A DNA stretch of 64,000 nt from Candidatus Parcubacteria bacterium (GCA_002869165.1 PKTK01000012.1:7275-71274); one strand, 5' to 3'; numbered from the stretch's first letter, positions 31,734-52,513 are shown. The notes: generated from the sequence alone by a model not told the origin. Made by a program: numbers and translations.

Positions 31734-31781
31734 CTGTAATAGTGTCATCTATAGTGTACACTATAGATGACACTATTACAG
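31734..31781. repeat. 48-bp perfect zero-spacer palindrome
   Basis: CTGTAATAGTGTCATCTATAGTGT|ACACTATAGATGACACTATTACAG, verified base by base. Confidence 0.9.
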
Positions 31782-31841
31782 ATATGATATTGAATGCCTA
31801 ATACAAAAAAACAAGCTCTTTCGAGCTTGTTTTTATATTCT

Positions 31842-32026
31842 GAGCGGGTAACGGGAATCGAAGTGGCGGAAGCCACACACCATCACTTATTTATGTTTTT
31901 TTATCTTAAATTCAATAATCTTTTATTTTTATATTCTATTATTTAAATACGCTTCTCAATCAGATTCATTACCGAAACTCACTCAGAAATAACAAAACAG
32001 CTCTGTTCGAGCTGTCTTGTTATTTC
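31842..32026 (-). mobile_element. cargo-less mini-insertion at the tRNA-Gly 3' end (element C)
   Basis: 31842-31862 is 21/21 identical to 32029-32049 (tRNA T-loop to 3' end), offset 187 bp. A hairpin GTGGC-TTCC-GCCAC (tRNA orientation; 31863-31876) abuts the ghost copy. A terminator follows each copy. Confidence 0.5.
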
Positions 32027-32101
32027 TGGAGCGGGTAACGGGAATCGAACCCGTCTATCCACCTTGGCAAGGTGATGTAATAGCCACTATACCATACCCG
32101 C
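32027..32101 (-). tRNA. tRNA-Gly (anticodon GCC), CCA encoded
   Basis: Reverse complement: GCGGGTATGGTATAGTGGCTATTACATCACCTTGCCAAGGTGGATAGACGGGTTCGATTCCCGTTACCCGCTCCA. The cloverleaf and T-loop GTTCGATTC are intact. Confidence 0.9.
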
Positions 32102-32282: not shown

Positions 32283-32744
32283 ATGCCAGTACTAGCAATA
32301 AACAAAAGAGCGAAATTTGATTATGAAATCATCTCATCTCATGAGGCTGGGGTTGTTTTGTTTGGGCATGAAGTTAAATCTATTAAAACTAGAAAGCCAA
32401 GCATGAAAGGCTCTTTTGTTACTATTAAGTCTAGTGGTAAAAATGCTGAATTATTTTTGACCAATTGCCATATCTCTCTTTATGATAAGACTACTACTGT
32501 AGAAAACTACAATCCCGAAAGACCAAGAAAACTTCTAATGCATAGAAAAGAGATTGATAAATTAATTGGCAAAAAACAAGAACAAGGACTGACCCTGGTG
32601 CCGATAAAAATATATACCAAAGGCAATCTGATTAAACTTGAGTTCGGAGTGGGTAGAGGAAAAAAGAAACATGATAAGCGTGAAGATATAAAAAAGAGAG
32701 ATACAGACAGACAGATCAGACGAGTAATGAAAGAAAGAAGGTAA
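32283..32744 (+). CDS. smpB: SsrA-binding protein SmpB
   Basis: NKRAKFDYEI...GHEVKSIK...L.NCHISLY...RPRKLLMHRKEI. Confidence 0.9.
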   Translation: MPVLAINKRAKFDYEIISSHEAGVVLFGHEVKSIKTRKPSMKGSFVTIKSSGKNAELFLTNCHISLYDKTTTVENYNPERPRKLLMHRKEIDKLIGKKQEQGLTLVPIKIYTKGNLIKLEFGVGRGKKKHDKREDIKKRDTDRQIRRVMKERR

Positions 32745-32849: not shown

Positions 32850-33237
32850 GGGGATGCTGGGTTTCGATAGAGAGACTATCATTTTGCATTCGAGATGAGT
32901 TCGTGGGAGTCTCATAAAAACTTTCACACCTAAATAAGTGCAAAAAATGTACTAGCAAAAGCTAAAGCTGCTTTCAGCATGCCAGCTTTTGCACCTGTTG
33001 TCGCTTAAAATTGCCACAACCATCCGACTTCTTGATGTCTAGTAGGGAAGACCCGGGTGTCATATCACTAGACTGGACCCGAGTGTGCGGTTAACTTTGG
33101 TCGAGATTTATCAAACTGCTCGCTGTTTATTTTTTTGTTTGGTTTTTAGATAAACAGTTAAATCACAAACTAATCTAGTCTTCGTAAAATTGTAAAATGT
33201 AACTTTCTAGACGCGAGTTCAACTCTCGCCATCTCCA
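32850..33237 (+). ncRNA. ssrA: tmRNA (SsrA)
   Basis: 5' GGGGATGCTGGGTTTCGA. 3' T-arm GCGAGTTCAACTCTCGC plus acceptor CATCTCC-A with the G3:U pair. Candidate tag ORF 32940-33008 is AKNVLAKAKAAFSMPAFAPVVA*. Adjacent to smpB. Confidence 0.9.
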
Positions 33238-33238
33238 C
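33216..33238 (+). repeat. attL core (part of the functional tmRNA 3' end)
   Basis: Identical to 41857-41879. Confidence 0.85.
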
Positions 33239-34418
33239 AATCAGAAGCAGAACCGAAAGGTTCTGTTTTTGGTTTATTGTTAGCATTAAACTGGACTCCT
33301 AATGACTTCATAATATCTACAAATTGAGCCTTGTTTATTTGCTCACTGTCCATATACTGTCCTTTTTTAGACAAAAGCTTGATTGAGTCCTCTAAAGTTG
33401 AAGGTGAAAGATGGGCGTATCGCATCGTAGTGGAGACACTGCTGTGTCCCATTAACTTTTGAATAACGACTATTGGACAGCCTTTCATCGCCAGATGACT
33501 GGCAAAACTGTGACGAAGGGCGTGCCACATAATCTTTCTGTCTTCCTTATTTTTTAGGTCTAAATTGCTTATAGCTTTTTTTAATGCCCTACGAGCGAGG
33601 TTTTCCTCAAGAAAGTTTCCATTTTTGTCTGTAAAAACAAAACCTTTTGATTTTTTCCTTCTTTCAAATATTTCACGAACCTCATAATCAAAAGGAATAT
33701 GTCTTTCCTTGCTGTTTTTTGGCACTCCTAATATATTTCGGTAGAAAGACTTTCTGACTGAAATAACATTCGTCTCAAAATTTATATCTGACCAACTTAA
33801 TGCACGAATTTCGCCATAACGAAGTCCTGTTCGCAAAACAAGCAATATCATATCTTTTAACATCCCATCAGTTGAACTTAATAATAAATCACTTTCTTCA
33901 AATGAAAGAAAATCATAATCTTGTGGAGGGACTTTTAAAAGTTTTATTTTAGGTTTCTTTTCAAGTTCGCTCCACTCAACCGCAAATTTAAGTATCGTGT
34001 TTAGAACAGTGATGTGTTCATTGATAGTCTTGTTGGCTAATCCCTTATTTTTGTTTAATGCCTTAAACTCTTCTATATTTAAACTTGTAATTAAATCCAG
34101 TTTTTTCTTTCCAAAAAAGGGGATGAGGTGCTTATTGAGAATGCTTGCCCTACCACGCACTCCTGAAATTTTACAATTATTCTTCACATAAACTTCGTGC
34201 CATTTCCAGGCAAATTTTTCAAATACTTCAACTTCCTTTTGCACTTTCTTAACAAAAGGATTTTCACCCTTTACCAATTTTTGCATTATCAATCTTTCAA
34301 AAGCTAAAGCTCCGTTTCTACTATTTTCAGGAGACTTCTTTCTGTATCTTTTACCTTGGTAACGAATATCAATGAACCACTTATTATTGGTGGTGTGTTT
34401 ATTTTTTATTACTGCCAT
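33219..34418 (-). CDS. tyrosine-type site-specific integrase
   Basis: Motifs: TGLRYGEIRAL (Arg I), HALRHSFASHL (H-x-x-R), GHSSVSTTMRYAHL (catalytic Tyr). The start is taken at MAVIKNK.... The last codons run into attL. Confidence 0.9.
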   Translation of the reverse strand: MAVIKNKHTTNNKWFIDIRYQGKRYRKKSPENSRNGALAFERLIMQKLVKGENPFVKKVQKEVEVFEKFAWKWHEVYVKNNCKISGVRGRASILNKHLIPFFGKKKLDLITSLNIEEFKALNKNKGLANKTINEHITVLNTILKFAVEWSELEKKPKIKLLKVPPQDYDFLSFEESDLLLSSTDGMLKDMILLVLRTGLRYGEIRALSWSDINFETNVISVRKSFYRNILGVPKNSKERHIPFDYEVREIFERRKKSKGFVFTDKNGNFLEENLARRALKKAISNLDLKNKEDRKIMWHALRHSFASHLAMKGCPIVVIQKLMGHSSVSTTMRYAHLSPSTLEDSIKLLSKKGQYMDSEQINKAQFVDIMKSLGVQFNANNKPKTEPFGSASDCGDGES

Positions 34419-34614
34419 ATACATCTTCAATACTGTCAATATTAAAACTATTTTTGACCTTATCAAGATTAAAACGGATTTGTCTGCCGACTTTAAAAAA
34501 AGGAATTTTGCGTTCTGTTACAAGACGATAAACAGTTGTAACAGAAACTTGCAACTCATCAGCAAGTTCTTCACCCTTTAAAAAATCTTTAGTTTTATTA
34601 TATTCAGTATTCAT
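34399..34614 (-). CDS. excisionase / MerR-AlpA-type HTH DNA-binding protein
   Basis: LKGEELADELQVSVTTVYRLVTERKIPFFKVGRQIRF. Lies immediately upstream of and overlapping the integrase. Confidence 0.8.
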   Translation of the reverse strand: MNTEYNKTKDFLKGEELADELQVSVTTVYRLVTERKIPFFKVGRQIRFNLDKVKNSFNIDSIEDVYGSNKK

Positions 34615-41856: not shown

Positions 41857-41879
41857 AGTTCAACTCTCGCCATCTCCAC
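41857..41879 (+). repeat. attR core (displaced native tmRNA 3' end, continues ..CCA plus native terminator)
   Basis: Identical to 33216-33238. Followed by an 18-bp-stem terminator at 41881-41922. Confidence 0.85.
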
Positions 41880-42068
41880 CATAATAAAACAGTCATTTGA
41901 AATGGCTGTTTTATTATGGTGTAAATGGTGGGTATGTTTAAATTGCTATGATTATACGCATTATTATCACAAAAAAAACAAATAGCAGGTAGACGGTACA
42001 AAACAGAAAAATTAAAAATATTTTGAGGGGGTGAGGCTTCTGCCTCTCTACTCTCACCATCTCCACCA
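41880..42068 (+). mobile_element. cargo-less mini-insertion at the tmRNA 3' end (element B), in tandem with the island
   Basis: A degenerate third copy of the tmRNA end, TCTACTCTCACCATCTCCACCA 42047-42068 (offset 187 bp), is preceded by TTGAGGGGGTG 42023-42033 and hairpin GAGGC-TTCT-GCCTC 42033-42046. Confidence 0.5.
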
Positions 42069-42139
42069 ACATAAAACAACCACACAAAGTGGTTGTTTTA
42101 TTTTATAAGACTATTGAAAATAAAGTTACTATAAATTAT

Positions 42140-42508
42140 TTAATAATTTAATGCTTTTATAAAATTAAAAATAATAGAAAAAATAAACCAAAAAATAAAT
42201 GCAATAAAAACAATAAAACGGACTTTTCTATATACTGATCTATACGCTAAACCAAGTTTTTTCAAAATGTTAATTATTTTAATTCGTTGTTCCATGGAAA
42301 GAAGCCCCACATATAATGAATAGCCAATACCTACAAAAATCATTGGACCAAAAATAAAATACAGCCAAGCTGGGTTATTTATAAATATACTTAACAAATC
42401 AGAAAAATCAAAATCTTTATCTAGGAAGATAAATATTGGTATTATAAGAATTAAACCAATCAAAGCTATTATAAGATCTCTTTTGTTCAATTTACGATCT
42501 TGATCCAT
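42140..42508 (-). CDS. small polytopic membrane protein
   Basis: 122 aa with 3-4 hydrophobic helices. Confidence 0.55.
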   Translation of the reverse strand: MDQDRKLNKRDLIIALIGLILIIPIFIFLDKDFDFSDLLSIFINNPAWLYFIFGPMIFVGIGYSLYVGLLSMEQRIKIINILKKLGLAYRSVYRKVRFIVFIAFIFWFIFSIIFNFIKALNY

Positions 42509-42693
42509 TTTTTATTATTATTTCAAATTATACCATTAAATTAGCAATTAGAAAATATAAAAAAGACATTTAAGAAGTCGAACAATTATCCATAAAGCAG
42601 TGACTACCAATTAGTAAAGACTTAAACAATTAATATAATATGTATTATAAATAAAAAACGCCCAAATTATATTAGGGCGTTTGAATTTTTGAA

Positions 42694-43131
42694 TTAATTT
42701 TTCTGAGTACTGAAACCTGCTTGCACAACTGACCGAAAAGCAATATCATGAGCTCCTTCATTGTTTTCATCATCCAGAGAAATACCGATTGCACCTATCA
42801 ATGACTGACCATTATATATCGGTACTCCGCCACCTTCACAGATAAATCTCTCTGTCTGAATTCCCATAATCTCAGGTGTTGTTCCTCTTTCATCAAGTGC
42901 ACGTTGACAGTACTTAGTACTTTCACCAGTCCACAATGATTGTCTGGCTTTCAAAAAAGCCTCGTTGGATAAACCTGGGCTCATGTTTTCCATTATGCTT
43001 CTGGCAATCTCTACGCCACTCACATTAACAATTTTGATTGATGCATTTAACATTCTCTCCGTGGTCTCATTGTATGCCAAATTAAGTATTTGCATAGCCT
43101 CTTTGGCAACTAGCGATTTAACTTGTCCCAT
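42694..43131 (-). CDS. GlcG/DUF336 (heme-binding-like) family protein
   Basis: GGGVPIYNGQSLIGAIGISLDDENNEGAHDIA. Confidence 0.7.
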   Translation of the reverse strand: MGQVKSLVAKEAMQILNLAYNETTERMLNASIKIVNVSGVEIARSIMENMSPGLSNEAFLKARQSLWTGESTKYCQRALDERGTTPEIMGIQTERFICEGGGVPIYNGQSLIGAIGISLDDENNEGAHDIAFRSVVQAGFSTQKN

Positions 43132-43277
43132 TTAATTCTCCTTTTTTAAAGTAACGTTTAAAAAAATATCAAGTACATTATATTAATATTTTTATCTCAA
43201 AATGTCAAATTTATGTTGACATTTTTACTAAAGTATAATATTTTTATTAAAATTGATCTTTTAAAATGAGGTGAATA

Positions 43278-43616
43278 ATGTTTGCAAAAAACTCCGATAA
43301 TATAAACCTAGTATTTCGTGAAATAAATGAATTTATTCTACTGATAAACAATACTCAAAAATGTTTATATATTATCAAAGAGCATGAAACGCATATAGAT
43401 ATTTACAAAATATGTTATGTAAATAAAAGAGGTAAAGCAGAATTAATCAAAGAACAATTACTAGCAAATCATAACTGGGAAATCGTGTCTAGAAAAGACC
43501 TAGAAGACAAAAAAGATATTGCTGATAAAATAGTGGCGATGTGTCTTGAAATAGTATCAATTTCTAACAAAAATCTAAACAAATTGAATAATCAAATCGA
43601 AAACATTTTTTATTAA
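43278..43616 (+). CDS. hypothetical protein
   Basis: 112-aa ORF with a GAGGTG RBS. Confidence 0.5.
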   Translation: MFAKNSDNINLVFREINEFILLINNTQKCLYIIKEHETHIDIYKICYVNKRGKAELIKEQLLANHNWEIVSRKDLEDKKDIADKIVAMCLEIVSISNKNLNKLNNQIENIFY

Positions 43617-43629
43617 AAAAGGAGAACTC

Positions 43630-44082
43630 ATGCATAATACAATTGATATTGAAGATTTAAAACCCTTCTATAAACTTGATGATGGAAAAGTATTTTTAGC
43701 TTGTTTTATTCATAAGCCCCATCTAACTTTAATAATAAATGTTAAAGATGATATAAATGAAAATACCTACTTTCTAAAATTAAAAAAGAGTGACAAAATA
43801 TGGTTGCTTCTAATAACGGCCGTAGCTGAAAAAGTTTGTGATGAAGACTTTCATCTTTATGAGCCCATTATTGATTTTGACTGTGAAGTAGTAGGCCTGG
43901 ACTATTCAACACCAAATTTAATTGACATTAATTTAAACTATAGGACACTTGAGCATCTAGCTATTAAAGGAACAAAAAAGGCTCTAAGTAATAAAAATGT
44001 TGACTGTAAAGTGTTTAATGTTGGTAAAATTAGAGCTGAGATTAAGAAGGCTCTTATAGATAAATTTGCAGATTTGATCTAA
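43630..44082 (+). CDS. hypothetical protein
   Basis: 150-aa ORF with an AAGGAGAA RBS. Confidence 0.55.
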   Translation: MHNTIDIEDLKPFYKLDDGKVFLACFIHKPHLTLIINVKDDINENTYFLKLKKSDKIWLLLITAVAEKVCDEDFHLYEPIIDFDCEVVGLDYSTPNLIDINLNYRTLEHLAIKGTKKALSNKNVDCKVFNVGKIRAEIKKALIDKFADLI

Positions 44083-44138
44083 ACATCAAAAAACGGACCC
44101 ACAAAGTCCGTTTTTTTATTTTTTCAAAGTTATCAACA

Positions 44139-44168
44139 TTGACTTGAATGGTAAAAATATGCTATAAT
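44139..44168 (+). promoter_or_regulatory. sigma70-type promoter candidate
   Basis: TTGACT 44139-44144, 18-nt spacer, TATAAT 44163-44168. Confidence 0.5.
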
Positions 44169-44227
44169 AGTAACATAAAGATCAAAAAATACTCTTTTTT
44201 GATATAAAAAAACAAAAATAAAATACT

Positions 44228-47191
44228 TTGCCAAAATTAGCAAAGAAAAATAAAAATATGTTAAAAAATTATCTTCATAGCTTGACCACAATACTAGGTA
44301 TAACTATTGTGGTTTTTTTGTTGTCTATAAGTGTTAGACAAATACTGGCGGTAGACACAAGTACTACCAAAATAAGTTTAGGTTTTAATCAAGAATCAGC
44401 TACAAATTCCAATTTATTATCTGCTACAAGTGATGTTTATGCATTAATAGACGAAAGTTTAATTGCAAACACTGATATTAATGAAGTAATTCTTTATGTT
44501 GTTCCAGAAAATGGTGTCTATGTAACATATAACATGAATAAAAGCGATAATCCTTTGAAATACGTTGTTAGCTTAGATACTACCATCTTTGAAGATAATT
44601 ACTACAAAATATATGCAATTGCTAAAATAGGGGATATTGACTATAAATCAGATGTTCAAAATATTGCCTTTGATAACACTGAGCTTAATTTTATCAATTT
44701 GTCCAACTACAACACAATTAAAGGACATTTTTTACTCGAGTCGACCAGTATTGGTTTAAACCAAATTGTAACGCTTGAAATAATGGATTTATATGAAAAT
44801 GTTGTATATACTATGGATTTATTTTTTAACTCAGATAGTAACACAAATTCTTACACGATATTAACAGAATATTACGACAATGGGTCATTTTATTTTAAAA
44901 TATCCGGTTACAGTACTTTTGATAAATACCACGAAAATACCATCCTTGTAAATATAAATAATTCTGAAATTACTAGCCATAATCTAACAATTACCTCAGA
45001 AGATATTATTGGTGGTGTTGTTGAATCTTCAAATATTACAGTTAACTTAAACATAGCACCTACTCTAAATCCAAATCATATTGATGTAAAATTTTTAGAT
45101 AATAATGGAATCACAAAAGATACAATTGTTTATGATAAAAATATCTCTGATTCAACTATTCTAAATCCTAGTGATGGTAATTTTATATTAGAAAATTATA
45201 ACATAAACCACTTAGACAATGGAGCTTACACCATTCAAGCTTATGCTGAATTTGATAATGAATCAATTAATAGCAATATCCTTATCTTTCAATTATCCAA
45301 TACTTCAACTGAAGTTACAGATGTAAACAATAGTGAGGAAACAAGTAGTACCAATACAGAAGAAACTATTAGCAATACAAACACAACAAATGATAGTGAA
45401 ATCACACAAACAACCGCCGAAGAAGAACCACAAATCATTCAAAGAAATTTAACTTTTATTAATAGTTCAAACTATATTGAAGGAAACGCAGATTTTTTTA
45501 TAGAAACAGATTTTCAAATACAAGAATTAAAATTTGTCCTGAAAAACAGACAAACACAAGAAACTACTCAGGGCAATGGCACGATTGTTTCAACTTATTC
45601 TGGTAAATACAGTTTTGTTGCTGACTCATTCCCTGAAGGTCAATATACTATTTATGCTTTGGTAACACCAGTCGATAGTACCATTGCTTTACAAAAAGAT
45701 TTTAACTTTGAATACGCTCTACCGGTAATTGAAGCCCCTATAGTAGAAGAGCCAGTTGATGTCACGCCCATAACAACACCGGACCCCGAACCAGAAACAA
45801 ATACAAAAATCACTAACAGCTATGTTCCTGAAACAGAGAATACACCCAAAGAAATTCAAACACCTATTGAAGAAAAAAATGAAACCATCACTCCCCAAAC
45901 AACTCCACAAACCACAGCCAAAGATGTAAGCTATGTTGAAAAAAGAGAACTGTGTGTCAAATTCGATATAACTAATAAATATAAATGTGACCGTTTGATG
46001 AATATGCCAGCAGTTTGTCAGGAAAAGGGAATTACATCTGTATCAGAATGTGAAATGCTTGAGTATCTTCCTCAAACATGTATTGATGCCGGTATTTTAG
46101 ATAGAAACGAATGCTCAAGTTTAATGGAAAAATTATCTTTACCAACAATATGTAAAGAAGCAAATATAGAATCTCAAGAAGAATGTTTTAATTATCAGAT
46201 TGCAAAAAGTTTGCCAAGTGAATGTGTAGAAAAAAATATTTATAATATAGGTGACTGCGAATCTTTACTCAACGAGCAGAGCAAAATCGAAGAACTTGAC
46301 GAAAAATGCATAAAGAACAACATCCTTGATGAAAAAGATTGTCAGGCTTTTATTCTTGGAATAAAACTTGATCCAATATGTATAGAAAATGGCATCATAG
46401 ATCTAAATGAATGTGATGCATTTTTGTTAACAAAATATAAAAAAGAAATTTGCTCAGAGATAAATGTTCTATCCTCTTCTCCCGCTTGTGAATCATATAT
46501 AAAAAATAAGTTTATAAACCAAGCTACCTGTGATACTGACAACTGGAATTGTCTTTTAATGATTCAAAATAACATCGGTCAAATAGCTAAAAAAGAATAT
46601 ACATACAAAAAATTGCTAGATATTTCCATGAGCGAAAATAACCACACTGATACGCTAAGCCTGAAAAATGCTTTAGAAGAAAATAAAGACGTCGTCTCTC
46701 TAACAAGTAATGAAATTGAAATAAGTTTTATTCAGGCTAAACCGGAGTTTAAGATTGAAGATGATATTGAAAAAACATCACCGGTAATTATCATTATAGA
46801 CTCAGATCAAGATGGTTTAAATGATGACTTAGAAAAAATAATTGGTACAAATATAAACTTAAAAGACACTGACCAAGACGGTTATGATGACTTTACTGAA
46901 TACAAAAGCGGTTATAATCCACTCGGGGCTGGAAAAATGAATGACTCAAGTAAAGTAAATATAATGACAGTGCTGGCTGATAAAAAAATCGAACATCCAA
47001 AAACAAATGGAGATATAAGTTCAAATATTATCTTTAATAATCCTAAAAATTCAGATCAAGAAGGAATTGTTCTTTCAGGTAAAGCTAATCCTAATCAAGA
47101 CTACCTACTCTATATTTATTCAGATCTACCTATTTTAACAACTGTTGAAACTGATGAATACGGTAACTGGAAGTACAACTTCAAAGAATAA
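44228..47191 (+). CDS. large secreted surface protein (Ig-like-repeat style N-half, Thr/Pro/Glu linker, Cys-pair repeats, Asp-rich Ca-binding motifs)
   Basis: 987 aa. N-terminal TM/signal peptide. About 8 repeats of P..C...GI.....EC. Contains DSDQDGLNDDLE..DTDQDGYDD. Ends at a TAA that is followed by 92 in-frame sense codons. Confidence 0.8.
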   Translation: MPKLAKKNKNMLKNYLHSLTTILGITIVVFLLSISVRQILAVDTSTTKISLGFNQESATNSNLLSATSDVYALIDESLIANTDINEVILYVVPENGVYVTYNMNKSDNPLKYVVSLDTTIFEDNYYKIYAIAKIGDIDYKSDVQNIAFDNTELNFINLSNYNTIKGHFLLESTSIGLNQIVTLEIMDLYENVVYTMDLFFNSDSNTNSYTILTEYYDNGSFYFKISGYSTFDKYHENTILVNINNSEITSHNLTITSEDIIGGVVESSNITVNLNIAPTLNPNHIDVKFLDNNGITKDTIVYDKNISDSTILNPSDGNFILENYNINHLDNGAYTIQAYAEFDNESINSNILIFQLSNTSTEVTDVNNSEETSSTNTEETISNTNTTNDSEITQTTAEEEPQIIQRNLTFINSSNYIEGNADFFIETDFQIQELKFVLKNRQTQETTQGNGTIVSTYSGKYSFVADSFPEGQYTIYALVTPVDSTIALQKDFNFEYALPVIEAPIVEEPVDVTPITTPDPEPETNTKITNSYVPETENTPKEIQTPIEEKNETITPQTTPQTTAKDVSYVEKRELCVKFDITNKYKCDRLMNMPAVCQEKGITSVSECEMLEYLPQTCIDAGILDRNECSSLMEKLSLPTICKEANIESQEECFNYQIAKSLPSECVEKNIYNIGDCESLLNEQSKIEELDEKCIKNNILDEKDCQAFILGIKLDPICIENGIIDLNECDAFLLTKYKKEICSEINVLSSSPACESYIKNKFINQATCDTDNWNCLLMIQNNIGQIAKKEYTYKKLLDISMSENNHTDTLSLKNALEENKDVVSLTSNEIEISFIQAKPEFKIEDDIEKTSPVIIIIDSDQDGLNDDLEKIIGTNINLKDTDQDGYDDFTEYKSGYNPLGAGKMNDSSKVNIMTVLADKKIEHPKTNGDISSNIIFNNPKNSDQEGIVLSGKANPNQDYLLYIYSDLPILTTVETDEYGNWKYNFKE

Positions 47192-47470
47192 ATTGTCGAT
47201 GGTAGACATGAAATTTATTTAACAGTCAACGATAACACTGGAAAGATACTAGAAAAAAGTTCAATACTAGAACTATTCATCAAAGAAGCCAAAGCTGTTT
47301 CAGCTGAAGACTTTGTAAATACTGCTTTACTTGATGACAAAGACGAATCTGATTCAATGATAATGATCTATATACTAACTGCTCTATTTGCAACCTTTGG
47401 CGCTATTCTTATATTTATTGCTTACTTCAAATTCCTCAAAAATACTAATAACACAAACAATGAGGTTTAA
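47192..47470 (+). other. in-frame continuation of the surface-protein gene beyond TAA 47189-47191, encoding an Ig-like strand pattern and a C-terminal TM anchor
   Basis: My translation is IVDGRHEIYLTVNDNTGKILEKSSILELFIKE...MIMIYILTALFATFGAILIFIAYFKFL..., with no stop for 92 codons in A+T-rich DNA. Confidence 0.55.
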
Positions 47471-48842
47471 AAACTACATAGATCAACACAGAGAAATAGC
47501 TCAAATTATTTATGGGGTGGTTTTAATTATTCTCATACCTCTTTTGATTAGTTATAATACAATTTCAATAATCTCTAAGTACAATCAAAGTATTGATGTA
47601 ACCTTGCAACGACAAGCCTTGAGTCTGGTTAACACTATCAATGCTTTAATAAGTGACGAGCTGAATGATCATGACAAACTACAAGATAAAATTGAAAATA
47701 TCAAAGAAAGAGATTCAGATATTATTGAAATTTCGGTTTTAATTCCCCAAGGTGATGATTTTATAATAATTGCTGCTGATAATCAAAATATTGTTGGAGA
47801 AAATATTAATTATTATTACTATAATGTAGCTTGGGCGCAAAAAAACTCCGATGCCTTAGTTACTGACTCGATTAAATTATCAAGACTTGATAAAAGCACA
47901 AGTTTTCAAACTGAAAACAACGAAAGATTTTGGTTGGTTACAAAAACTCTTACCAATGAAGATGGTAAAAAAATTGCCCTACTATCACTTAATATTTCTT
48001 CTGAAATTGTTGATCAGCTCACTGAGAGCAACCGCAACTCCTCCTTGCTTATTTTGTTTGCTACGATAATAATAACTATCCTGTTTTTAGTAATTGCTGT
48101 TAGGCTTTGGGATTATGTTCTGCTTTACAAAAAAATCAAAGAATTAGATAAAATGAAAAATGAATTCATTTCGATTGCTTCACACGAACTTCGAACTCCA
48201 ATTACTAGTATAAAAGGTTACAGTTCAATGGTATTAGATGGTACTATGGGAAAGATAAATGACGATGTTAAAAACGCAGCAAAAGTTATAAAAGACTCTT
48301 CAGTAAGACTTGGCACCCTGGTTGAGGATTTATTAAATGTGAGTCGTATAGAGCAAAATCGAATACAAATAAACCTTCAAGTAATTTCTCCAAAAAAAAT
48401 TATTGAAGAAGCTATAACAGAACTCAAAGTACAAGCCAAAAATAAAAATTTATCACTCAAATTTTTACCCCACAACAAAAAATTACCTTTATTAAACATT
48501 GATCCAGAAAAACTAAAACAAATTTTAATTAATTTGATTGGAAATTCCATTAAATACACTAACAAGGGCGGCATTGAAATAAAAACTCAAGAAAAAGAAA
48601 ACAAATTTTTAGAAATTATAATCAAAGATACAGGTATAGGCATGACCAGCAAAGAAAAGGAGAAGCTTTTTCAAAAATTCTATCGAGTAAAAAATGAAGA
48701 CACTGAAAAAATAACTGGCACAGGACTTGGACTGTGGATCACTAAAGAGCTAGTAGAGATGATGGATGGAAAAATTACATTAGACTCTATAAAAGACGTT
48801 GGTACACAAATAAACCTCATATTCAAAATTGAACAAATGTAA
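47460..48842 (+). CDS. sensor histidine kinase (no cognate response regulator in the window)
   Basis: HisKA H-box SIASHELRTPITSIKGY. HATPase N and G boxes (NLIGNSIKYT, DTGIGM, GTGLGLWI). The start at MRFKNY overlaps the end of the preceding frame. Confidence 0.85.
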   Translation: MRFKNYIDQHREIAQIIYGVVLIILIPLLISYNTISIISKYNQSIDVTLQRQALSLVNTINALISDELNDHDKLQDKIENIKERDSDIIEISVLIPQGDDFIIIAADNQNIVGENINYYYYNVAWAQKNSDALVTDSIKLSRLDKSTSFQTENNERFWLVTKTLTNEDGKKIALLSLNISSEIVDQLTESNRNSSLLILFATIIITILFLVIAVRLWDYVLLYKKIKELDKMKNEFISIASHELRTPITSIKGYSSMVLDGTMGKINDDVKNAAKVIKDSSVRLGTLVEDLLNVSRIEQNRIQINLQVISPKKIIEEAITELKVQAKNKNLSLKFLPHNKKLPLLNIDPEKLKQILINLIGNSIKYTNKGGIEIKTQEKENKFLEIIIKDTGIGMTSKEKEKLFQKFYRVKNEDTEKITGTGLGLWITKELVEMMDGKITLDSIKDVGTQINLIFKIEQM

Positions 48843-48885
48843 CTATAAAAGGAGATTTTTGAAAATCTCCTTTTTTTCATTTTTT

Positions 48886-49164
48886 TCATAATTCTCCAAT
48901 ACTCCAACCTGGTATTGTTTTATTTAAATACTCTCCAAACAATGGCCGGATATCTCCTTTTACAAGTTCAACCAAATTTCTCTCTCTATCCAGTATAAGC
49001 ATACTGTCATTTACAGTTTCAAGCCAAGGATCATCTGCTTCCTTTTTTGCCTCTTCTTTGGCTAAAAACAAATTGTTAGAAAAACTTGAAAGAACTAAAT
49101 ACAAATGCTTGTCTTTTTTTTGAAAACACAAAGTTTCAAATCTTTTATTTCTATTTTTATACAT
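48886..49164 (-). CDS. hypothetical protein
   Basis: 92-aa ORF with a GGAGG RBS. Confidence 0.5.
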   Translation of the reverse strand: MYKNRNKRFETLCFQKKDKHLYLVLSSFSNNLFLAKEEAKKEADDPWLETVNDSMLILDRERNLVELVKGDIRPLFGEYLNKTIPGWSIGEL

Positions 49165-49306
49165 ATTCTACCTCCAGTTTATTTATATTAGTATTTGTCT
49201 TTTCATTTTTTTGTATTTAAACTAACATTATCACAAAATAATTAAATATTTATTAGACTATTTAACTTGATTTGTTGTATTAACTAGAATATAATATAAT
49301 TTATAT

Positions 49307-50488
49307 ATGAATAAATTTCTAATATTTTCAATTCGAGTCGGGGCATTTCTAGTGCTTTGTTTTTTTATTCTTCAAACACTTGCTTTTTTTGGAGTAAAAT
49401 ATGAGCTAACAAAAGTTTTGGGTGAAATTGATGACAACTCTGCAGAATACAATAAGATTGCAAAAGAAAATGCCAAATTAATTGAAGATAACTACAAATT
49501 GATTAAAAATTCAAGAAATTTAAACACTTTTTAAACAACAACGAAAAACAAGTTTGCTTTACCAAAAAATATTTCTATTTATGGGCCAAGAGCAGATGAA
49601 AACTGGTGTAAAATAAAAGTTGCTAGCCAGTATAATGACTTTACAACCAATTCAATCTTCAAAGCCTATCGAGATTCAAAATCAGAAATACTTCTAAACA
49701 ATATGTTGCTTGCTTTGGAATTGCGACATCCAAACAAAGATGAATTTTCCAATGATTTGCTTACCTGTCAAAATACCACCGAAAGTTTTGTTCCTGAGGA
49801 TTTGGAAGAATTATTTTTTGAAATAAATGATAAAAATCTATATTCATGGCAAAATGGCGAACCATGGCAGATAATTTCCAAGGCAATAAAGAAGGACAAA
49901 GATCTTATTTACAAAACTTCTGAACTGAGCGGAGTTCAGCCAAGACTTTTAGTTTCTGTTGCTATTGTTGAACAACTTAGATTGTACTACACTCAACGAG
50001 AACTTTTTGAAAAAGTCTTTAAGCCTTTAGAAATATTGGCTAATGCCAATAAAATGGCCTGGGGGATAATGGCTATCAAAGAACGAATGGCTATTGAAAC
50101 CGAAGACCATCTTCATGATATTAATTCTGATTTTTATTTAGGTTCTTCAACCGAAGCATTACTTGACTATAAGGAGGGAGATGATAAAGGAAGAATCCGT
50201 TATAATCGCTTGACTGATAATAGTTCGCATTATTGGTCTTATCTTTATGGCTCTTTGATTATTGCCCAACTTGAGAATCAATGGGAAAAAGCTGGATATT
50301 CTATCAAGTATAGACCTGAGATTATTGCCACCTTATTTAACATAGGATTTTCAAAATCCAAACCAAAAGACAATCCACAAGTCGGGGGCTCAACTCTTCA
50401 AATAGAAGGAGATAAATATTTTTTCGGATCACTGGCCTTTGAATTTTACTATTCTGGAGCTTTAATAGACGAATTTCCTTTTGAATAG
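49307..50488 (+). pseudogene. membrane-anchored protein with a single in-frame TAA (49532-49534); alternatively two genes, 49307-49534 and 49703-50488
   Basis: Both ORFs are in the same frame. 56 stop-free codons link the TAA to the first Met of the downstream ORF. There is no RBS or alternative start in between. Confidence 0.5.
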
Positions 50489-50636
50489 ACAATACTACTA
50501 TGTAAAATATATCAATTACACCCTATTTATAAAAATACAAAAAATTTAAATTCATTGCTTTGACAAAATAAAATAAATAACATATAATATTCAAAGTAAT
50601 ACCTCTTTAGACAGGTATTTATTTTTTTCAAATCTA

Positions 50637-50720
50637 GCCCAGGTGGTGGAATTGGTAGACACGAGGGACTTAAAATCCCTTGGCCGCAAGGCTGTGCGAG
50701 TTCGATTCTCGCCCTGGGCA
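50637..50720 (+). tRNA. tRNA-Leu (anticodon UAA), long variable arm, CCA not encoded
   Basis: GCCCAGGTGGTGGAATTGGTAGACACGAGGGACTTAAAATCCCTTGGCCGCAAGGCTGTGCGAGTTCGATTCTCGCCCTGGGCA. Confidence 0.9.
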
Positions 50721-50901
50721 CAAAAAGGAGAAAACTGAAAAGTTTTCTTTTTTTGTGAAGCCAGGGTGGAAGCGAACTCGCATATGAAGTGCAAAGACTT
50801 CCATTAAAAAAAGGCTCATAAAAAAATAATATTAAAATTGAAAACAAAAAAAATTCTTGAGGGGGTGCCCTTTTCAGGGCTTCGATTCTAGCCCTGGGCA
50901 C
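50721..50901 (+). mobile_element. cargo-less mini-insertion at the tRNA-Leu 3' end (element A)
   Basis: 50881-50901 repeats 50701-50721 (20/21), offset 180 bp. TTGAGGGGGTG 50857-50867 and hairpin GCCCT-TTTC-AGGGC 50867-50880 abut the ghost copy. Terminators at 50729-50755 and 50909-50928. Confidence 0.5.
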
Positions 50902-50960
50902 ATAAATACCTTCTTTTGAAGGGTTTTTACATAAATGTTCTTATAAAAAGGAGAGGAATA

Positions 50961-51719
50961 ATGGGATGGGTTTTAGCTTTGAGGACACATGTTTCATTTG
51001 TTTGTTTGCTAATAACTATAGCAAGTTTCAAGTTAAACGGCTGGGATGAGAGTGTGTGGCTATGTTCATTTTTTGTATTTCTATCTTGTTCATCATCCAT
51101 GCTTTATAATGACTGGATTGACCGAGATCATGACAAAAGAAAAGGCAAATATTTCACATCAGAAAAAGAAAAATATTTTTTCTGTTATGTTGTTATTTTC
51201 TACCTTGCACAAATTGCTTATTGTGTCTATCTGTTCAAGATAAACAATTTTTATGGCATCATCGGTTTATGCATGATGATACTAGGAGTCTTATACAACT
51301 ATGTAAGAAACTTTGACTTACTTTCAAACCTAATTGTTTCCTTATCATTTGCCTTAACTTGTTTGTTTGCTATTACAAATAGTTATACACTTGAAGGGAT
51401 TGTTTGGATGGTATTTATTTTTTTAACTGCTTACGCTCGGGAAATAATTAAAGACTTAATTGATATGGGAATAGACAAGGGCTACAAAAGATCAATGGCT
51501 CTTAGATTTGGAACCAAGACTACTTCAATTTCTGCTGCTTATATTTTGGTTTGGTCAATGATATTGCTTTTTTTTATCGGAAAAATTGCCTTAGCTTACA
51601 GTGTGCCAGTTTTTATTTATGTTATTTATCTAGCTACCAAAAATGTTCACTATAGACAATCAAAACACTCTATAGATCTGGCTCTTTTTATTTGTTCTTT
51701 GGCAATTATCCTTACCTAA
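50961..51719 (+). CDS. UbiA-family prenyltransferase
   Basis: NDWIDRDHDKRKG (NDxxDxxxD) motif, about 8 TM helices, AGGAGAGG RBS before the internal Met. Confidence 0.7.
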   Translation: MGWVLALRTHVSFVCLLITIASFKLNGWDESVWLCSFFVFLSCSSSMLYNDWIDRDHDKRKGKYFTSEKEKYFFCYVVIFYLAQIAYCVYLFKINNFYGIIGLCMMILGVLYNYVRNFDLLSNLIVSLSFALTCLFAITNSYTLEGIVWMVFIFLTAYAREIIKDLIDMGIDKGYKRSMALRFGTKTTSISAAYILVWSMILLFFIGKIALAYSVPVFIYVIYLATKNVHYRQSKHSIDLALFICSLAIILT

Positions 51720-51982: not shown

Positions 51983-52513
51983 TTAGGTCCATTTTTCAAG
52001 TAGCTCATCATTTATCTTTTTTATTTCATCACTTTCCAAGTCTCTATCCCCGTCTTCACTTTCTTTGTTTGTTTTTCTATCCAAAATATCTAGAAATATA
52101 TCATTCTTTATTATTTTGACCCTAACCCCTTCCTCTCTCACTTTCTCTATCTTATTCGTTAAATCAATGTCATCACTTACAAATGTTAAACCTTCTTTGT
52201 CTAATAATTCAAACAGTGATTTGTTTATTTTGATGTCTTGATCTTTTATAAAGTCCTCCCACTCTCTTGTAATTTCTATAATTTTGTCATCAGCATTGTT
52301 ATAATATTCATCTCTTGGAGTATAAATTGAAATTATTTCTCCATCAATCCGCTTATCTCCCATCTTTTCTAAACTATCGAACACCAAAATAATTTTCTTC
52401 TGCTTGTCTCCTAACCACTTGCTGATTTTCTCAACTAAAAGCATATCAAAATCTTCTTCATCCAAGATTCCAATTTTACCTGCTAAATTATTGGCATCAA
52501 TTAAATAGTTCAT
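51983..52513 (-). CDS. YacP-like NYN/PIN-type nuclease-domain protein (tentative)
   Basis: MNYLIDANNLAGK......ILVFD pattern typical of NYN_YacP. Confidence 0.5.
   Translation of the reverse strand: MNYLIDANNLAGKIGILDEEDFDMLLVEKISKWLGDKQKKIILVFDSLEKMGDKRIDGEIISIYTPRDEYYNNADDKIIEITREWEDFIKDQDIKINKSLFELLDKEGLTFVSDDIDLTNKIEKVREEGVRVKIIKNDIFLDILDRKTNKESEDGDRDLESDEIKKINDELLEKWT

Follow-up and report, generated by a model that had tools for sequence, protein, structure and literature searches.

The DNA behind the 8.6-kb island at the tmRNA gene (ssrA) contains one member of an abundant, structured and gene-less family of T-loop mini-elements in Patescibacteria. We lean towards reading positions 41859-42045 as a copy of a small insertion element of 187 nt, non-coding and non-autonomous, that targets the ssrA 3' end specifically, and 42046-42068 as the end displaced by it; insertion of the unit by an integrase is plausible. 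The family is apparently undescribed: we found no description of these units in the literature, and Rfam 15 has no family for them, only tRNA and tmRNA passing its thresholds and the weak matches being at chance level.

Positions are those of the window, that is, the whole stretch of 64,000 nucleotides that was analysed. Its source is a Patescibacteria (CPR) bacterium, the best SmpB matches (60-70% identity) being mostly to Parcubacteria and Falkowbacteria MAGs. The ssrA locus is composed of the following features:

32283-32744: smpB, directly upstream of ssrA (SmpB Pfam match)
32850-33238, plus strand: ssrA, the tmRNA gene (ARAGORN; Rfam RF00023, 116 bits; SmpB Pfam match for the smpB neighbour)
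33218-33238, plus strand: S0, the current ssrA 3' end from T54 and attL of the island; ends CCACAA, CCA not encoded
33219-34466, minus strand: tyrosine integrase of the island (Pfam Phage_integrase, 1.9e-31), the ORF ending inside the ssrA T loop
33239-41858: the 8.6-kb island, from the integrase to an HTH regulator, with ends that have no box, hairpin or antisense arm
41859-41881, plus strand: S1, a perfect copy (0 mismatches) of the ssrA 3' end from T54 and attR of the island; encodes CCA

The tmRNA-end 23-mer TTCAACTCTCGCCATCTCCACCA matched three sites at up to three mismatches, namely 33218-33240 (1 mismatch), 41859-41881 (0) and 42046-42068 (3), where 100 shuffles led us to expect none. 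The third, degenerate tmRNA 3' end that a sequence-only reading of this DNA had placed beyond attR is thus real: the distal copy ends 187 bp past the attR copy, and the one indel and two substitutions attributed to it are as parsimonious as three ungapped substitutions. Since the integrase gene abuts the first tmRNA-end copy, the 8.6 kb up to the second copy form a conventional T-loop-integrated island, whose integrase is the sole recombinase found in a Pfam scan of about 40 window ORFs. The integrase ORF crosses the terminator after ssrA and has its stop codon in the ssrA T loop (TCA, 33219-33221), so that the C-terminus of the enzyme is encoded across the att core. S1 was the functional ssrA end before the island came, and we infer that 42046-42068 (S2) is the original, displaced one. 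The proposed order, ssrA - island - 3'-end copy - unit of about 187 bp - degenerate distal copy, was borne out, and the most decayed state of the distal copy fits its being the oldest.

The present ssrA end, CCACAA (33236-33240), does not encode CCA, like nearly all relatives, and both displaced ends (41877-41881 and 42064-42068) encode CCACCA. A look-up by exact SmpB retrieved four other, identical contigs of this strain, three of which reach the locus, all with island and mini-element; no isogenic empty site occurs among these three. The oldest ssrA end and the tRNA-Leu promoter stand about 8.5 kb apart; the genes in this interval (42105-50630) include those for an HbpS-like protein and a histidine kinase as well as a 987-aa ORF, and a search for a fourth ssrA copy at its border before tRNA-Leu found none. 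In relatives (loci are given by L numbers), tRNA-Leu(taa) lies 15-510 bp after ssrA in most loci that have both, the distance being 844 bp in L001, with a tRNA-Ala between them. A different type of insert occupies the ssrA 3' flank in L001 (3869-4500), L004 (2299-2750), L010 (10935-11320) and L012 (11015-11520); it begins TTCGAC(T/C)CGC...CTCAGTGCAGGC, has internal repeats and bears a small ORF ending ...KREKQLKGW..K.KKINLIK.GHP, which resembles small GIY-YIG-type proteins. In this clade the 3' flank of ssrA is generally a hotspot of insertion.

The unit behind ssrA and the displaced end are built as follows:

41859-42045, plus strand: the ssrA unit (187 nt), with all family parts present
41882-41916, plus strand: T1, a near-perfect palindromic A-tract/T-tract hairpin, terminator-like, flush with S1 and A1
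41917-41946, plus strand: A1, an imperfect antisense of tmRNA positions 49-76 (TGGTGTAAATGGTGGGTATGTTTAAATTGC), located by local alignment
41947-42022, plus strand: motif 1 (TATGATTATACGC), then an A-rich spacer
42023-42033, plus strand: the G/T-rich box TTGAGGGGGTG (family consensus TGAkGGnGTG)
42034-42045, plus strand: H, the hairpin AGGC-TTCT-GCCT, abutting S2; 5 bp including G42033:C42046
42046-42068, plus strand: S2, the degenerate distal copy of the ssrA end, with three substitutions when ungapped
42069-42104, plus strand: T2, a hairpin following S2, terminator-like and without sequence relation to T1

When folded, S1, T1 and A1 form one long hairpin. The antisense arm, absent from the sequence-only reading, aligned with a score of 23.5 against 12.9 +/- 2.2 in shuffles (0 of 1000 dinucleotide shuffles reached it), and was also seen as a minus-strand match at 41919-41930. 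Terminators had been claimed after both tmRNA copies, and palindromic terminator-like hairpins do stand there; our simple terminator scan needs at least three G-C stem pairs and hence lists neither of them. T2 also faces a convergent 122-aa ORF (42140-42508). The exact box TTGAGGGGGTG has only two sites in 64 kb, 42023 and 50857, each with a 4-5-bp hairpin behind it and a t(m)RNA 3'-end copy 13-14 nt downstream. Its count alone is weakly significant (at least two matches in 6 of 100 shuffles, one mismatch allowed), and the match is convincing because of the shared position. The box and hairpin said to be common to the tmRNA and tRNA-Leu units were therefore recovered at the same relative position, and the two units are homologous in architecture; their A-rich stretches do align (71% identity), but against a family background median of 62% this likeness is weak, hardly exceeding what composition alone gives.

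Each of the three t(m)RNA genes of the window bears one unit (187, 180 and 187 nt); the third unit, behind tRNA-Gly(gcc) at 32049-31840 on the minus strand, had escaped the sequence-only reading:

50701-50927, plus strand: unit behind tRNA-Leu(taa), with S1 50701-50721, T1 50722-50754, A1 50755-50782, box 50857-50867, H 50868-50879, S2 50881-50901 (1 mismatch) and T2 50909-50927
31803-32049, minus strand: unit behind tRNA-Gly(gcc), with S1 32049-32027, T1 32026-31985, A1 about 31985-31961, box GTGATGGTGTG 31886-31876, H (TGGC-TTCC-GCCA) 31875-31864, S2 31862-31840 (2 mismatches) and T2 about 31834-31803

The score of A1 was reached by 0 of 1000 dinucleotide shuffles for tRNA-Leu and by 3 of 1000 shuffles for tRNA-Gly, and A1 starts within 6 nt of the hairpin end in the ssrA and tRNA-Leu units. 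The distal terminator T2 of tRNA-Gly(gcc) is a diverged homologue of the proximal T1, which suggests an insertion beside an older remnant. Just past this unit lies a perfect palindrome of about 48 nt (31734-31781, CTGTAATAGTGTCATCTATAGTGTACACTATAGATGACACTATTACAG). Directly after the tRNA-Leu unit, a UbiA-family gene (50916-51719) is absent at the matching position in L134, L004 and L009; in these loci the gene next to tRNA-Leu is a convergent homologue of window 51983-52513, and the UbiA-family gene may have come in as cargo of a further insertion at tRNA-Leu.

The window and 80 loci fetched via SmpB were searched for downstream copies of the last 20 nt of each t(m)RNA gene. Recurrent copies began 158-167 nt downstream of tRNA-Leu(taa) in L001, of tRNA-Leu(cag), tRNA-Ala(cgc) and tRNA-Gly(tcc) in L006, and of the tmRNA and tRNA-Leu(taa) in L026. 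A metagenome scan with a hairpin plus T-loop pattern yielded 32 loci, about 26 of which are true units immediately behind a gene; they follow tRNA-Ile, Gly, Pro, Tyr, Arg (two isoacceptors), Leu (three further isoacceptors), Cys, Glu, Thr, Val, Lys and Asn as well as tmRNA, and a follow-up scan added a unit behind tRNA-Ser on one metagenome contig. Altogether about 17 tRNA species are followed by this architecture, as is tmRNA; besides the metagenome loci, it occurs in MAGs of Parcubacteria and Falkowbacteria (L001, L006, L026).

The existence of the family and its anatomy are established, the order of parts being constant: S1 - T1 - A1 - optional A-rich spacer - box - H - S2. S1 is the gene end from T54, T1 a near-perfect A-tract/T-tract palindrome that is different in each element, and A1 an imperfect antisense copy of positions 49-74; the box is G/T-rich (consensus TGAkGGnGTG), H is a GC hairpin with a TTCN loop, and S2 starts at T54, the identity of S1 and S2 extending from there to position 74/75. 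Unit length is bimodal (106-117 or 168-187 nt), as are the gap from the gene to the start of the downstream copy (86-97 or 148-167 nt) and the distance from A1 to S2 (24-26 or 95-102 nt). The A-rich spacer of the long units lies between direct TGA(T) repeats, yTGAT after A1 and nTGAT before GGTGTG (for example at 41949-41953 and 42024-42026 in the window, and in L127, L115 and L120); it adds a constant 74-76 nt or so, perhaps as an insertion nested within the unit. The units are devoid of ORFs. Among 93 ORFs flanking 25 loci with elements, a Pfam scan revealed no recurrent linked recombinase, the neighbours being housekeeping genes; scans of viral contigs for a phage attP with the box, H and T-loop patterns gave chance coding matches or nothing, and neither in 145 loci nor in the viral contigs did we find a larger gene-bearing partner with a box and H end kilobases from a tRNA.

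The recurrence of the family also bears on a local accident, such as replication slippage or quasi-palindrome template switching at a terminator, or a mere chance resemblance. S1-T1-A1 is indeed a quasi-palindrome centred on the terminator loop, as such an event could leave behind, but the box and hairpin are conserved across unrelated loci and genomes and the copies are far beyond chance; family-wide recurrence effectively refutes this explanation, to which we give next to no credence.

Other structures were met in the same loci. A second kind of unit stands behind tRNA-Gly or tRNA-Ser (L018 5844-6060, L140 8270-8472, L076 1880-2126), with 199-223 nt to the downstream copy, a GC-rich spacer with repeats of the CGAGCGAG type, a terminator and a short antisense arm; its identity with the gene starts later in the T loop (ATAATTCC...). 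In L133 (4460-4700), an orphan unit (T1-A1-spacer-box-H-S2-T2) directly follows a 1477-aa ORF without a tRNA gene, the proximal 3'-end copy being present only in badly decayed form. The published tRNA group I introns of Patescibacteria concern the anticodon loop and are unrelated to the units.

Several comparisons point to the insertion of whole units. Orthologous genes can be empty, as are tRNA-Leu(taa) in L004, L006, L008 and L009 and tRNA-Gly(gcc) in L001, L004, L007 and L008. The ssrA flanks of relatives are very different from one another, with a unit in only some of them (L026, L134), so that the segment is not part of the conserved ssrA downstream region that the sequence-only reading had named as the alternative. 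Tandem arrays of at least two units occur in L127, L134, L060 and L036, and the number of units is not the same in the related contigs L125 and L144. T1 and T2 mostly show no relationship in sequence. In L132 the next tRNA gene begins 4 nt after S2, hence the terminator is not native and arrived with the insert. In L006 the last 25 nt of tRNA-Gly(gcc) and tRNA-Gly(tcc) are identical and their T1-A1-motif 1 segments are, by eye, roughly 85-90% identical, the Gly(gcc) copy being truncated before the box. T1 and A1 therefore travel with the element.

The two gene-end copies also differ in how they age. S2 gains changes that break tRNA pairing and S1 does not; among 14 elements with differing copies, the tRNA 5' half fits S1 better in seven, S2 in one (L127) and both equally in six, and the near-identical strains L121 and L143 differ in S2 only. 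As a marker of which copy is native, this 5'-half fit was discarded as uninformative, S2 being the better in L127 only. T2 resembles T1 at some loci, being identical in L137 and diverged in L117 and in the window tRNA-Gly unit, and in L126 a partial second unit follows; such loci are best read as new insertions beside remnants of older units, and it counts against the insertion reading that a T2 identical or homologous to T1 requires re-integration next to such remnants. A circular junction was sought and none was found.

Within one sample, the spacer, box and H of a tRNA-Cys element (L126) and a Leu-like element (L131) are 88% identical, their S, T1 and A1 being unrelated, and linkers are genome-specific across different tRNA targets (L116, L134). 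Each tRNA species thus has its own S and A1 and yet shares core and linkers with others, for which simple site-specific integration is insufficient; a core shared on different tRNAs calls for module recombination between co-resident elements or for a templated re-arming of the core. The same observations favour a scheme in which the spacer-box-H core alone is mobile, and each insertion copies A1 and the distal 3' end anew from its target, by fold-back or template switching or in a guide-like manner, so that a match to any tRNA would be automatic. A1 moreover spans the insertion point and is best conserved at positions 49-56, as a splint or guide would be. We nonetheless hold this scheme to be unlikely: A1 is about 73% complementary, in a non-random pattern, and so cannot have been copied freshly; between the two L006 Gly genes, T1 has moved together with A1, and the L132 terminator cannot be native; and a signature of reverse transcription was not found. 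An origin by reverse transcription was itself rejected, as no CCA is added to the copies, which end like the genes, and the CCA difference of the window is not general.

Selection appears to act on the structure of the unit. Across the family, all five pairs of H change on both sides, H being 88% paired and its score reached by none of 500 shuffles. In 28 elements A1 is 73% identical to a perfect antisense, with a complementarity of 77-100% at positions 49-56, except position 53 (64%); these positions take in the 5' strand of the T stem, which is not part of the duplication. Positions 61-68 are 63-86% complementary (77-93% with wobble pairs included), and opposite TTCGA loops A1 has an A facing G57 and a G facing A58 in 12-13 of 17 cases, giving a tandem G.A motif. 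Where A1 deviates from the perfect antisense, changes that preserve G:T(U) pairs in the sense strand predominate, C>T plus A>G (sense) numbering 63 versus 19 for G>A plus T>C (antisense). The circularly closed unit has a mean fold energy of -50.8 kcal/mol in the sense strand versus -42.3 in the antisense strand, the sense fold being the lower in 27 of the 28 elements (Wilcoxon p = 2e-6); the fold loses stability when A1 alone is shuffled (mean z -3.1), and in the minimum-energy fold 66% of the S nucleotides pair with A1, a pairing confined to the sense strand. Structural conservation and strand asymmetry are firm on these figures, and the sense-strand unit is predicted to be rod-shaped, an S:A1 stem being capped by T1 and flanked by H at its other end.

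Three other structural identities were considered and rejected. For a bent double-stranded minicircle, A-tract autocorrelation had no 10.5-bp phasing, weak peaks lying near 8-9 and 16-17; for a tRNA-like or ribozyme identity, ARAGORN and Rfam found nothing in the units; and for a hammerhead-like layout (TGAnGG - hairpin - TCGAA), the core nucleotides fail as judged by eye.

The covariation of H and the maintained pairing of A1 imply selection on the small unit itself, which weighs against its being a CIME-like deletion remnant of an ordinary integrase-bearing ssrA island, reduced to its two att-proximal arms. Such a remnant would account for the direct repeats of the ssrA 3' end that flank the unit, for the active-looking, T-loop-targeting integrase island that adjoins it and for the existence of truncated copies (L006 tRNA-Gly(gcc), L126, L137). 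We consider it quite improbable, since dozens of loci, independent of one another and representing about 17 tRNA species, have units of just two narrow length classes, and the units never show gene fragments inside, have no full-length version among the loci found and share neither box, H nor A1 with the ends of the co-resident island.

The same island ends set aside the analogy with ICE/CIME pairs drawn in the sequence-only reading: without the family motifs at its ends, the island and the unit are two ssrA insertions of different kinds, the unit belonging to a size-constrained, gene-less family. ICE/CIME pairs in streptococci are a case of tandem accretion at tRNA/tmRNA att sites. Another is provided by the tycheposon arrays of Prochlorococcus (bioRxiv 10.1101/2020.12.28.424599). 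The present locus resembles both in its successive insertions at a t(m)RNA 3' end with partial gene copies between them, in an outermost copy that is oldest and most decayed, and in non-autonomous partners without an integrase. However, those elements are kilobases long and carry an integrase or derive from integrase carriers, whereas the units are gene-less, 106-187 nt long, endowed with a conserved secondary structure and an antisense arm of their own, and have nothing in common with the island ends. Compared with a T-loop island, the units have the flanking gene-end repeats from the T loop and no tyrosine or serine recombinase of their own, no ORF fitting into 106-187 nt; compared with a CIME, they have no att-flanking arms in common with the co-resident island as an autonomous partner.

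The structural signals lie in the transcribed strand and would suit a function as RNA just as well; the unit could then be a host-maintained, non-mobile module, such as a 3' trailer with structure or a small A1-H-S2 RNA by which the acceptor/T-arm of the tRNA is mimicked or sequestered, with a possible role in processing, termination or regulation. Sense-specific folding, G:U-compatible substitutions and tandem G.A pairs are typical RNA features, T1 and often T2 look like intrinsic terminators, and the A1-H-S2 stem looks like a minihelix of acceptor and T-arm with the discriminator base at its end. This is, in our estimation, improbable: the units are patchy over orthologous genes even in close relatives, form tandem arrays and partial copies, differ in copy number and let S2 decay freely; T1 should end transcription before A1, the short forms have no room for a promoter, and no Rfam family matches.

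For the insertion element that we favour, the comparisons and folds suggest the following course. By site-specific strand exchange in the T loop, the element would insert between G53 and T54, bringing the last 21 nt or so of the gene (S) and its own terminator (T1). With S and T1 thus supplied, the gene would stay intact and the old end would decay. The A1 arm would pair with positions 49-74 and the GC hairpin H would abut the crossover point, so that in the sense strand S:A1, capped by T1 and H, could form a rod or dumbbell; given this fold, the active form would most likely be a folded single strand, like attC or the CTX attP. A recombinase encoded elsewhere in the genome would act on the folded strand, its type and any circular or single-stranded intermediates being conjectural; the predicted circle or tandem junction of the ssrA unit is GAGGCTTCTGCCTC joined to TTCAACTCTCGCCATCTCCACCATAATAAAAC. 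The native ssrA ending in S2-T2 would thus have received the mini-element and then, by means of its own integrase, the 8.6-kb island, whose integration at the same T-loop site would have shifted both the mini-element and the oldest end downstream by 8.6 kb. A more far-reaching version, which we advance with considerable doubt, is that the units are integrated rod-shaped single-stranded minicircles of about 110-190 nt, in which A1, as a splint across G53/T54, sets the target and the core (spacer-box-H) can be re-armed with a new tRNA-matched arm.

Among known folded substrates, integron attC sites and the attP(+) of CTX-phi/IMEX are similar in being imperfect palindromes with a variable, well-paired centre and conserved outer triplets (here G53-T54-T55 opposite AAC), a breakpoint G|TT about 5 nt from the stem base, strand-specific folding, a recombinase that acts (or here would act) in trans, and gene-less or promoter-less units in tandem. 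The helix of about 5 bp on the 5' side of the breakpoint, formed by the T stem in the gene and by H in the element, likewise recalls the folded single-strand substrates of tyrosine recombinases. In contrast to attC, polarity is reversed, GTT being in the 5' arm here and AAC in that of attC; unlike in both systems, the target is the T loop rather than attI or dif, and one arm of the palindrome belongs to a functional gene. No IntI or Xer gene was found among the window ORFs scanned, and the units have no cassette ORFs.

REPINs, which RAYT transposases mobilise, and IS200/IS605-derived PATEs are also non-autonomous, about 100 nt long and folded into a long hairpin in one strand; a genome has many copies of them, and the enzyme that moves them is presumably encoded elsewhere by a single-copy gene. 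They differ in that their arms are element-specific and that they make no long target duplication and no gene-specific insertion, whereas here the arms copy the 3' end of the adjacent tRNA and any one copy belongs to a single tRNA species. IS200/IS605-type PATEs or omega-RNA-bearing ends should have like subterminal hairpins at both ends and no target duplication; here T1 is unrelated to H, the duplication is 21 nt long, and Rfam gives no IS605 or HEARO-type match. MITEs such as Correia/NEMIS are comparable in size, in the absence of coding capacity, in inverted-repeat ends (here A1 and S2) and in built-in terminators, but their inverted repeats are the same in every copy and bound by a transposase, and their target duplications are short; in the units the inverted repeats vary with the tRNA species, and a gene end of 21 nt forms the direct repeat. 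No related IS was found that would support a MITE.

If our reading is true, the small genomes of CPR bacteria carry a large, overlooked set of ultra-small site-specific elements on their tRNA and tmRNA genes, which they leave unbroken, and the family extends what little is known of mobile DNA in Patescibacteria. The partial tRNA copies that the units create will pass for island boundaries in methods that pair a tRNA gene with a downstream fragment. An antisense arm of about 27 nt across the crossover, with no linked enzyme and with versions for nearly every tRNA, raises the question of how target specificity is written and rewritten, and the recombinase behind the units would be of interest for targeted DNA insertion. 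Should the minicircle version be true as well, the units would represent a naturally re-programmable, protein-gene-free family of site-specific elements on most tRNA species of Patescibacteria.
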